Virus record (IMG/VR): IMGVR_UViG_3300027419_000010
Location: 1-43,256 of that record
Strand: one strand, 5' to 3'
Source: a virus
Lineage: Duplodnaviria > Caudoviricetes
Length of the DNA stretch: 43,256 bases
Positions 13,884-20,419 of the stretch are shown one piece after another. Position 1 is the stretch's first letter. Each line of letters starts with the position of its first letter. The position numbers and the translations under genes are program-made. Under the pieces are notes generated by a model. The model searched no databases. It was not told the origin of the DNA and worked only from the letters and a program-made list of their open reading frames with translations.

Positions 13884-14176
13884 AGCAAGAGTTTGAGTGG
13901 CTTCTAAAAGCTCACAAAATGCCCTGTATGGAACGAGAATATCGTTTTGTACCGGATAGACGCTGGCGGTTCGATTTCGCCTATACGGGGCAGAAAATTG
14001 CCGTAGAAATAGAAGGAGGAATATGGAACGGAGGTAGGCACACCAGGGGGTCCGGATACGAGAAAGATTTGGAAAAATATAACCGAGCTACTATCGAAGG
14101 CTGGAAAGTTTTGCGATATACCGGCCGGACAATGGGGCAGGCAATAGATGACTTAAATAAAATATTAAACAAATGA
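13865..14176 (+). CDS. PD-(D/E)XK endonuclease (DUF559/Vsr-like)
   Basis: EYRF..DRRWRFDFA...IAVEIEGG.W..GRH.RG.GY..D..KYN.A...GW.VLR. Confidence 0.85.
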   Translation: MAKSNLEQEFEWLLKAHKMPCMEREYRFVPDRRWRFDFAYTGQKIAVEIEGGIWNGGRHTRGSGYEKDLEKYNRATIEGWKVLRYTGRTMGQAIDDLNKILNK

Positions 14177-18273: not shown

Positions 18274-18301
18274 TTGACAAATTATTAAAAGGTGCTAAGA
18301 C
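18274..18301 (+). promoter_or_regulatory. Promoter for a putative small RNA
   Basis: TTGACA-16nt-TAAGAC with TG extension; the -10 is imperfect. Confidence 0.45.
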
Positions 18302-18307
18302 GAAGAT

Positions 18308-18412
18308 AGTTTTACAAATCTTAATTTAATCCCTCAGGATTAGCGTCGAAAGGCGTTTGCTAGAATTAAGGTTCATAGACACGCAATTTCCCCCATTTTA
18401 GGGGATTTTGCG
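18308..18412 (+). ncRNA. Putative small RNA: three-way junction plus 3' hairpin (candidate decoy RNA)
   Basis: 11-bp AATCTTAATTT/GAATTAAGGTT enclosing TAATCC/GGATTA and AGCGTC-GAAA-GGCGTT; then TCCCC/GGGGA plus TTTT; no ORF. Confidence 0.55.
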
Positions 18413-18424
18413 CCCTGAAAAAAT

Positions 18425-18461
18425 ATGATATAATGGTTATATCATCCCGATACGGTATCGG
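18425..18461 (+). promoter_or_regulatory. Extended -10 promoter overlaid by two palindromes (operator or recombination site)
   Basis: TGaTATAAT at 18426-18434; ATGATATAA-TGG-TTATATCAT and CCGATAC-G-GTATCGG. Confidence 0.6.
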
Positions 18462-18470
18462 TTGACATAC

Positions 18471-18530
18471 AGGCCCGTCTTTTGAAACCTCAAGTCTAGC
18501 AACGAGAGGGACTAGAAAGGCGGGTCTTTA
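18471..18530 (+). ncRNA. Integrase-leader hairpin, candidate antisense immunity RNA
   Basis: 13-bp AGGCCCGTCTTTT/GAAAGGCGGGTCT, inner CCTC/GAGG, apical loop AAGTCTAGCAACGA; stem ends 4 nt before the integrase ATG. Confidence 0.6.
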
Positions 18531-18531
18531 T

Positions 18532-19413
18532 ATGCTTCAAAAAGAGATAGATTTATATTTAAAATGGAAGAGCGGCAATTATCCCAGGGCGGCTAAAATG
18601 TATGAGATACATGTACGGCGCTTCAATGAATATAATAAAAAAGCATTGTCTGAAATAACTATAGAGAATGTAATAGATTTCAATGAAAGCATAAAAAACA
18701 AATACTCCCAGAATCACATCAACTACGCTATGACTGTAGTCAAGGACTTTCTGGGATTTTATTACAAACAGACCGTAAAGGGAAAGAGGAGGTGTAATAT
18801 AGACCCTTCACTGGTAAGGATCAGGAGGAACGAAGCCAACCCTCATTACGCCATTACGGAAAAAGAGTATCGTGAGCTTATAAATAAGATGCCGGAAAAC
18901 GAGTTTTGGCATGCTCAGTTAAAGATTATCGTACGGCTTTTATATGAAACAGGTATCCGCGTATCGGAATTAGTCAATCTGAATATCGAGGACATAGACA
19001 ACCCGAACCATATGGCTCTAATCATTACAAGGAAAGGACGGGAAAAAGGCTGGATAAAATGGAGCGACGACCTGCACGAGACTATGGTAAAGTTTTTAGG
19101 CGTGAGGCTTTGCATGAACCAACAGCCGCATTTGTTTTTAACCAGTACCGGACATAAGAGGCCGACAGTCAGGACTATTGAAAGGTGGGTGAAGAAAATA
19201 GTCCGGGAATATGATATGGATGAAAGGATCGTCGTCCATAGCTTCAGGCACGGCAAGGCGCATTATATGTATGATCATGGCGCGGATCTCGTGGCGGTCC
19301 ACAAGGCCCTTAGGCACAGTAAAAATAATGTCGGCGGCGCTATGCAGTATTTGAGATTCAATGAAAAAGAATCAGATAAGATTTTAACGGAGTTCCTGCC
19401 GGTGACCTATTGA
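18532..19413 (+). CDS. int: Tyrosine recombinase/integrase (XerC/D-like)
   Basis: Catalytic R (TGIRVSEL), K (RKG), HxxR (HSFRH), H (LRHS), Y (MQYL); N-terminal SAM-like domain. Confidence 0.93.
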   Translation: MLQKEIDLYLKWKSGNYPRAAKMYEIHVRRFNEYNKKALSEITIENVIDFNESIKNKYSQNHINYAMTVVKDFLGFYYKQTVKGKRRCNIDPSLVRIRRNEANPHYAITEKEYRELINKMPENEFWHAQLKIIVRLLYETGIRVSELVNLNIEDIDNPNHMALIITRKGREKGWIKWSDDLHETMVKFLGVRLCMNQQPHLFLTSTGHKRPTVRTIERWVKKIVREYDMDERIVVHSFRHGKAHYMYDHGADLVAVHKALRHSKNNVGGAMQYLRFNEKESDKILTEFLPVTY

Positions 19414-19438
19414 CCTTACTTATTTTATGTGATATACT
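19410..19438 (+). promoter_or_regulatory. Strong early promoter
   Basis: TTGACC-17nt-TATACT with TG extension, overlapping the integrase stop. Confidence 0.8.
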
Positions 19439-19444
19439 ACTGAT

Positions 19445-19815
19445 ATAGAACATTGAAATTCGTACGGAAAACAATTTCAGACTCGTTGGTCGCAACAGGA
19501 AAGGCTCAAAGCCTTTTAAAAAAACAAGTAGAATGTCGCAAAATCCTGCTTGTGCGAAAAGGGCTAGAATAAGCCAAGAAAACGAGTCTAAGAAACTCGT
19601 TTTTTTGTTGCTACGGGCCGATAGACCCAACGAGCTATCGGCCTATAGGAGCAAGTAAGGCATAGATTGCTTCATTTCTTAGGCTCCTGTGGATAACTCT
19701 CTTATCCATAGGGCTAAGGAAACGAACGGCCGGGCAGCAAGTAGCTAGTCTATACGACATTGGCACAAGCTTCCCGGCACGTCACGACCTAAAAAGGGTG
19801 GCCTAATCATTAGAC
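19445..19815 (+). ncRNA. About 370-nt structured early-operon leader with attenuator
   Basis: AGACTCGTT/AACGAGTCT antiterminator, internal multibranch, then hairpins GGCCGATAG/CTATCGGCC, TGTGGATAA/TTATCCATA and GCCGGG/CCCGGC; no plus-strand ORF in the track. Confidence 0.75.
19576..19606 (+). terminator. Conditional intrinsic terminator in the early leader
   Basis: AAAACGAGT-CTAAGAA-ACTCGTTTT plus T-run; its 5' strand is shared with the upstream antiterminator helix. Confidence 0.75.
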
Positions 19816-19822
19816 CAAACAA

Positions 19823-20419
19823 ATGACGCAAGTCAAAACGTACCGCATCGGAACTTATGAGCTTATCAACGGCAAATATGTCCTTAAAAATCATAACAGG
19901 ACGTACCGGGGAAAGCCCACCAAGCACATTGAAAAGATAGAAGCAAAAAGGAGAGAAGTGAGAAGAGGAATGGCGGTAATAGTCGCTTGCTTCATTATTA
20001 CGGCGTTACAGATTACTAATAGCTTCGAGATAGAGGCGGAAGGAGTGGCTGCCGGAGATGTAGTAGTCACGGCGGTTGCTCCTACTGACTACAGCGGAAT
20101 TCCTTACATTACCAAGATAGAGCCGAGCGTGGAGGAACAAATAAGAATGATTGCTGCGGAAAAGGATTTCAAATGGGCTGATTACTTGGTAAAGCTGGCG
20201 AACTGCGAAAGCAAGCTGAACCCGAAAGCTATCAACGATAAGAACAGGAACGGAAGTATAGATTGGGGATTGTTCCAATGGAACAGCGAACTTCCTCCGA
20301 TACCGATTACGAAAGACTGCGCTATGGATATCCGGTGTTCTACGGAAAAGACTATCGAGGCAATCAATATGGGATTGCAGGATCACTGGGTATGCAACGA
20401 TATAGTTTTAAACAATTAA
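19823..20419 (+). CDS. Membrane-anchored lysozyme-like/SLT transglycosylase
   Basis: TM segment, then CES..NP.A.N..N.NGS.DWGLFQWN catalytic motif. Confidence 0.8.
   Translation: MTQVKTYRIGTYELINGKYVLKNHNRTYRGKPTKHIEKIEAKRREVRRGMAVIVACFIITALQITNSFEIEAEGVAAGDVVVTAVAPTDYSGIPYITKIEPSVEEQIRMIAAEKDFKWADYLVKLANCESKLNPKAINDKNRNGSIDWGLFQWNSELPPIPITKDCAMDIRCSTEKTIEAINMGLQDHWVCNDIVLNN

Follow-up and report, generated by a model that had tools for sequence, protein, structure and literature searches.

The DNA analysed here (the window; 43,256 nucleotides, IMG/VR record IMGVR_UViG_3300027419_000010) contained an integrase gene preceded by a hairpin and followed by the leader of an early operon, and this locus raises the question of how a phage in which no repressor can be recognised would choose between lysis and lysogeny. 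The original prediction answered it with an RNA co-expressed with the integrase, which was to pair in trans with two half-sites of the early leader and so terminate early transcription. The reading preferred below, at a rough probability of 0.62, is a lysis/lysogeny switch without a repressor, composed of integration at 19534–19559 within the early leader plus small-RNA shut-off of int. All features given below are on the + strand, except the palindrome at 19534–19559, to which no strand was assigned; every sequence string quoted in the original prediction was found at its coordinates.

Genome, relatives and search for a repressor

The window was a circular tailed-phage genome of 43 kb with a 127-nt terminal repeat and matches to terminase, portal, and capsid, and the phage was present whole in two groundwater runs, X1 and X2; no RNA run was found among the listed runs holding window sequence. 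Relatives were collected with an Int alignment, which fetched 240 loci: 50 non-redundant loci had at least 235 bits and upstream sequence, and 42 of these were kept (two fell short of the required 290 nt of upstream sequence, and a weak hairpin excluded another six). Among the left-out loci, no hairpin was called before int in L006, L008, L099, and L164, and the upstream target described below was visible by reading in L007 and L165. A single-protein locus search gave no match, GenBank phages had only distant integrases, and a class-wide search found a close Int in 5/401 genomes, one of the five being a likely host Xer. L305 proved to be the same element as L001 in a scaffold pattern scan (119 matches).

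The loci were labelled as phage-type or cassette. The cassettes (L085, L092–L094, L097, L101, L102, L107–L110, L114, L163, and L168–L172) displayed the organization int, site, small ORF, and Phage_rep_O-like gene, with the same Int and RNA pair; several were in Bacteroidota records, and the long contigs and the complete chromosome in which Bacteroidota cassettes occurred carried them unsplit. L170 was counted as phage-type though its genes were cassette-like. A relative in run X3 (record 4) had both flanks in common with the window and other sequence between them (window 18298–19715), so that the int/RNA/site module may, by this pattern, be exchanged as a unit.

No repressor family was found among 68 window ORFs searched with Pfam/PHROGs or among 24 searched with NCBIfam, and a profile of the HTH proteins of six relatives had no match among 935 six-frame window segments (best E 0.3), which bears out the earlier statement that the window has no recognisable CI-like repressor. 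The sole HTH-like signal of the window was the N-terminus of the phosphoesterase at 14173 (Pfam/PHROGs), most window ORFs were without family, and no + strand ORF was found between int and the site in the window. In L003, L004, L007, L081, L088, and L166, but not in the window, int was separated from PE, the early promoter (see below), by a small ORF; this ORF was HTH-like in three of the four scanned (L081, L088, and L166), so the family was not uniformly protein-free.

Integrase leader and its upstream target

Int (18532–19413) was an Xer-like tyrosine recombinase with a PF00589 match and best NCBIfam and PDB matches of XerA type, below the family cut-off; its six catalytic residues R143, K168, H236, R239, H262, and Y273 were all kept and were invariant in the alignment, so the recombinase was intact as had been supposed. 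The loop-presenting RNA just before int was likewise recovered: the hairpin at 18471–18527 folded with z −4.4 (0/200 shuffles as stable), its outer stem had two-sided changes in 10/12 pairs across 9 sequences, and in relatives the hairpin just before the ATG was kept as a structure, with a varying loop. The 12-mer at 18495–18506, earlier placed almost entirely in the apical loop, was the quoted string at the right place, but only 18496–18501 of it were terminal-loop.

Two candidate promoters lay upstream: (i) P1 (18274–18302), predicted to drive a long int transcript from a putative start site, with a perfect −35 (TTGACA at 18274–18279) and a weak −10, and (ii) P2 (18426–18434; TGATATAAT), a predicted extended −10 promoter for a small RNA. 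TTGAC[AT] was found at most 150 nt before the target in 13/21 loci, and a strict extended −10 between target and hairpin in 10/21 loci; with such a promoter-like site in that position, an RNA with the loop but without the target could be made. The predicted small RNA of the window spans 18441–18531 and carries the hairpin, which ends 4 nt before the int ATG and has its variable loop seed at 18495–18502. A perfect 9-bp palindrome covered the P2 −10 (18425–18445). Elsewhere, L009 contained three hairpins like the int-leader hairpin, with other loops, after its site (L009:4015–4318), possibly an array of immunity RNAs.

A repeat scan disclosed a pairing missed in the original prediction: 18357–18373 was complementary to 18486–18502 at 15/17 nt. 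The seed target (18357–18364) plus its extension, together 18357–18387, formed a predicted int-leader antiterminator, and the target was presented single-stranded in a junction of a closing stem and two hairpins (18317–18373; z −2.5). In the relatives, the 200 nt upstream were searched for a stretch of 7 nt or more perfectly complementary to a 14-nt segment on the loop, and 41/42 loci with hairpin had one. The loop and its upstream complement of 7–10 nt co-varied (21/21 distinct loops versus 8% of non-cognate pairs; p = 1e-5, a permutation value inflated, like those below, because the loci are related and their independence is overstated), the int coding sequence as control gave 0/21, and the extension into the 5′ arm of the hairpin, with the seed excluded, co-varied too (p = 1e-5). 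By these sequence comparisons, the conserved target of the int-leader loop is located upstream of int. In L005 the loop had two complements, namely the upstream target and, within the attachment site of the same locus, the right arm.

The junction fold was alike in the window and most relatives shown, with two-sided changes in 9/14 pairs of a 17-row alignment of relatives from which the window was left out. The model R1 (17 rows, mostly cassette junctions) matched cassette junctions and missed the upstream junction of the window as well as those of the searched phage-type loci, so it is likeness of fold that suggests one family across both types; MAFFT misaligned the mixed set. In the predicted fold of the P1 transcript of the window, the target was paired with the loop up to 18520 and the hairpin formed at full length, as the layout of a kinetic attenuator would have it; equilibrium cofolding gave no loop–target pairing with either target. 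The U-tract before int was short, and thus the block at int may be translational.

Because co-variation is blind to direction and the junction folds alone, the same data would also suit the opposite sign, in which the P1 junction is a short activator RNA that opens (or titrates) the hairpin of the P2 transcript in trans and turns int on. This reversal is improbable: the target is in cis and upstream, it prevails during transcription according to the predicted fold, and the junction in the early leader of the cassettes (see below) acts like a target, not a gene.

Early attenuator across the attachment site

The early leader lay behind the predicted promoter PE (19410–19438; TTGACC-17-TATACT) and led to the SLT-domain gene (19823–20419), the first early gene, followed by RecT, YqaJ, and replication genes; prophage G002 likewise had an SLT gene in first position behind its left site. 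Between them lay an antiterminator strand (19479–19487, upstream of the attachment site), able to form 9 bp with 19581–19589, and a predicted intrinsic terminator (19575–19607, downstream of the site; z −4.6) that would insulate the early operon and that was found by the attenuator script and unflagged by a simple scan. Both states folded far better than shuffles, the leader being predicted to adopt the helix 19479–19487/19581–19589 at 19590 and the terminator at 19610, and the attenuator proposed earlier for this leader was thereby reproduced.

In the 170 nt that follow the site, the attenuator script detected a terminator in 16/32 cases. Across these 16 loci the 5′ arm of the terminator paired best with its own pre-site strand (p = 1e-5; 11/16 ranked first), and an 8-locus subset, which contained L170 with its cassette-like genes and the unclassified L099, gave p = 3e-5. 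The pairing was also seen in prophages (11 bp in G001, 10 bp in G005, and, by eye, 8 bp in G002), where the two strands were 29–40 kb apart, so that excision to the circle would be needed to bring them together. Since antiterminator and terminator co-varied across the site, integration would part PE and the antiterminator from the terminator and the early genes; and since the early attenuator straddles the attachment site, recombination is most likely what switches it.

Behind the terminator, a 9-bp hairpin (19616–19643) repeated in its loop the motif CAACGAG, complementary to 19482–19488 too. A 17-codon TTG ORF at 19605 was dropped, its stop being lost in a relative.

dif-like site, prophages and candidate host dif

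The palindrome at 19534–19559, the predicted attP, was composed of two arms and a 6-bp spacer and was the sole good copy in the genome. It showed the dif layout of two inverted arms of ~11 bp round a 6-bp centre, as given in the available part of PMC5357621, and an exact left arm followed int in 31/46 loci. The stretch between the half-sites, earlier taken for a folded domain that brings them together, contained this palindrome, the GCGA strand being part of the right arm. An extra arm-like half-site was seen in the early leader (19488–19497), with similar half-sites beside the site in G001 and G374.

Four complete prophages (G001 and G002, titled Moraniibacteriota; G005, titled Saccharibacteria; and G374, of the same class as G002) had the site at both ends and head or terminase genes inside, with lengths of 29–40 kb. 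One end carried int, a promoter-like site, and the site, and the other end carried the site, the terminator, and early or replication genes; the promoter-like sites, identified by reading in three of the four (G001, G002, and G005), preceded the right-hand site at an equivalent position. In G001 and G005 the left sites were degenerate; they were missed as near-exact pattern matches and recognised by reading. Spacer and right arm were host-like at the int-side end and divergent at the other, which suggests that strands are exchanged at the spacer's left edge, by analogy with VGJ phi as described in the accessible text of PMC5357621; the spacers differed between prophage ends, so that part of the reaction may fall to host Xer. 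A single such site was present in the window, in the attP form, its spacer being unlike that of the host. In X1 and X2 the contigs spanned the site unbroken and no integrated copy of the window phage itself was seen, and the X3 contigs, which left 19466–19546 uncovered and had no junction, were uninformative on integration; one X3 contig matched 19547–19656 with no listed difference. A repeat of ~100 nt was observed near both ends of prophage G001, once inverted (L362:7900–8000; L161 after int).

The host pattern, which was drawn from these same elements, was found in 75/151 genomes of a Patescibacteria class (set G011–G160) and was single in 69, versus 5/151 for the reversed control. GC skew changed sign at the site in 4/4 contigs; contigs or records of the candidate dif were G005, G028, G098, and G374. 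Thirteen of 30 fetched host loci were near gltX, its neighbour, or rpmA, and one was with a recombinase. Single copy and GC-skew flip fit dif, which occurs once per chromosome at the replication terminus, as characterised in the part of PMC5357621 at hand, making this a candidate dif site of Patescibacteria, and the near-symmetric arms suggest a single host Xer. Attachment site and related prophages together point to a Patescibacterium as the probable host of the window phage. There is precedent for finding a host dif via a mobile element in the available passages of PMC9765430. Patescibacteria prophages with predicted attachment sites have been reported in 10.1101/2024.03.08.584096, whose available passages did not mention dif or a switch, and no paper on the site or the switch in Patescibacteria was found in the open-access literature.

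An alternative is a switch controlled by protein, in which an unrecognised repressor, or a roadblock of Int or host Xer at the palindrome, would silence PE and the RNA would tune int only. The HTH-like ORFs beside PE in several relatives, the site retained inside the leader of unsplit cassettes, the extra half-site at 19488, the 9-bp palindrome over the P2 −10, and the lack of a family for most ORFs all speak for it; the window, however, gave no repressor match, and PE was parted from the early genes in four prophages, so that no repressor is needed there. Silencing by protein is considered very improbable, and integration very probably is itself the off switch for PE.

Split target and second targets in the early leader

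The original prediction placed the target of the loop at half-site 1 (19482–19488) and half-site 2 (19563–19568), pairing in trans to cause termination at 19606. Half-site 1 was present and not conserved as a target, and half-site 2 offered 6 bp and was partly paired in the predicted fold. The split complement was uncommon (0.6–1.6% of shuffles; 23–34/2156 genome tiles) but had been chosen post hoc, and it was absent from the relatives: against the antiterminator strand, the apical 24 nt of the hairpin matched 7 nt in the window but 2–4 nt in 12/12 relatives. Ten phage-type leaders (L170 included) yielded no cognate target: p was 0.75 for the part before the site and, for the part behind it, 0.09 by length and 0.5 by energy. 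The half-site duplexes reached −10.5 and −8.9 kcal/mol versus −18.9 kcal/mol for the upstream target, half-site 1 was mostly paired, and the two flank the attachment site, hence they are parted in the prophage. Binding of both by the int-leader RNA is therefore unlikely, even with the rarity of the match among shuffles, the sharing of GCTAGAAT by the upstream target and half-site 2, and the trans target of the cassette relatives (see below) in its favour, and it would concern this lineage only, for example in superinfection immunity.

A weaker downstream signal (11/20; p = 4e-5) came mainly from the Bacteroidota cassettes. In these, a second copy of the junction, enclosed in a long stem and carrying a cognate target, lay ~100–120 nt ahead of the first gene, and this target co-varied with the loop (9 distinct loops; p = 0.0008). 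It lay >1 kb downstream, behind another promoter, which implies action in trans. By this co-variation, the general idea of an RNA acting in trans on the early leader holds for some members of the family, via a different site; the trans half of the original prediction thus stood in the cassettes and drew no support from the 10 phage-type leaders. Placement of the second target over the start codon of the first gene was rejected, the ATG in question being part of the closing strand of the junction, ~100–120 nt before the gene.

In the window, the best candidate second target was a weak one at 19600–19613 (7 Watson–Crick plus G–U pairs at the terminator tail), whose duplex of −14.2 kcal/mol was equalled by 17/627 tiles with the 15-nt loop and by 459/627 with the 32-nt apical part; a lineage-specific second target in this leader is possible. 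Three further resemblances to cassettes were observed: (i) 19677–19720 seemed by eye to be the long stem of the cassettes, with a short loop; (ii) 19718–19729 was like a cassette-type target and not cognate to the loop of this phage; and (iii) 19778–19831 was a junction-like fold at the start of the first gene with a non-cognate slot (E 0.04). The latter two may be relics or targets of the RNA of another element.

Proposed switch

In the repressor-free switch preferred here, PE of the free circle would transcribe through the site, 19479–19487 would capture the 5′ arm of the terminator, and the recombination and replication genes would be read, the pairing and co-variation of this state having been computed and its effect on transcription presumed. 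After integration at the host dif, PE and the antiterminator would point into host DNA, and the terminator would insulate the early operon at the other end. Int would be made from P1 transcripts, in which 18357–18387 is predicted, on folding kinetics, to catch the nascent loop and 5′ arm and so block the hairpin. The P2 RNA, which is without the target, would bind the junction of the P1 transcript in trans; the hairpin would then form, and transcription or ribosome loading at int would presumably stop. The variable loops would set immunity types, and loss of the RNA or higher P1 activity would raise Int, with excision and reconnection of PE. RNA attenuation of int is probably what maintains the prophage. 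The elements, their co-variation, and the prophage layout were observed; that the promoters are active, that termination occurs, that the RNA acts in trans and with which sign, and which recombinase is at work, we infer.

A wider reading is more tentative, at somewhat under even odds: a widespread family of temperate phages of Patescibacteria and related cassettes of Bacteroidota would share lysogeny free of protein repressors, with a dif-mimic attP between antiterminator and terminator, a new pair of small RNA and three-helix junction, of exchangeable 7–10 nt specificity, that gates int and, where the element is unsplit or superinfecting, the early operon, and immunity groups coded by RNA, and the dif site of the hosts would be given with it.

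If true, a single recombinase and a single DNA site, together with RNA pairing, all of them short parts, would make a minimal switch of the phage life cycle, near the simple ancestral switch outlined in the available part of PMC3694055 but without the repressor, and the logic of Tn916, described in 2024, would extend to tailed phages. The same switch would explain how prophages persist in Patescibacteria, hard-to-culture hosts, would supply a candidate dif site and a host-prediction marker for them, and would constitute a naturally occurring collection of RNA switches, which are perhaps orthogonal.

Comparison with known systems

For each of Tn916, P4 CI, the BPs type, and IMEX, a defining feature was absent here. 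The C4 RNA of P1/P7 is a similar immunity RNA that pairs with leader sites. In P4, as described in the available passages of PMC4825925, the CI RNA is a small RNA from the same leader that pairs with an upstream and a downstream site (seqA/seqC) and stops expression. The locus resembled P4 CI and C4 in having a leader-region small RNA with an upstream target, plus a downstream one in cassettes, and differed from them in that the RNA is predicted to arise from its own promoter and terminator instead of by processing, and has int as its main target, in a three-helix junction. Rfam gave 0 gathering matches in the window and no CI or C4 among 5 weak matches, in keeping with the original prediction of no likeness to either in sequence; the weak matches STnc250 and PreQ1 were rejected, being below the gathering score and a generic terminator.

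For the mycobacteriophages BPs, Brujita, and Charlie, recombination sets the state, attP lies within the gene for the repressor, and proteolysis limits Int (PMC3694055, available part). Recombination would set the state here as well, with prophage stability resting on low Int, but attP was in the early leader, no repressor was seen, and Int is predicted to be limited by RNA; the hallmark given in that part, attP inside the repressor ORF with rep, int, and cro round divergent promoters, was absent.

IMEX, such as VGJ phi (PMC5357621) and LME-1 (PMC9765430), have in the passages at hand a dif-mimic attP whose spacer is unlike that of the host, and one prophage end is host-like. The present elements shared with them the dif-mimic attP and, in four related prophages, integration at dif, the element revealing the host dif. 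They were unlike IMEX, which depend on host Xer and encode no recombinase themselves, in having their own intact Xer-like Int, with use of host Xer possible, and a site that would double as a transcriptional switch.

In Tn916, according to the accessible part of PMC11658703, a promoter (Porf7) and a cis RNA antiterminator (canT) are at one end and an insulating terminator (T1) and replication genes at the other, joined after excision only. The four prophages displayed the same parting, by integration, of promoter and antiterminator from terminator and replication genes. However, canT is described in that part as processive and as working on heterologous terminators, whereas here a strand of 8–11 bp pairs with its own terminator; and Tn916 is a conjugative element, whereas the element found here is a tailed phage with a dif-like site.
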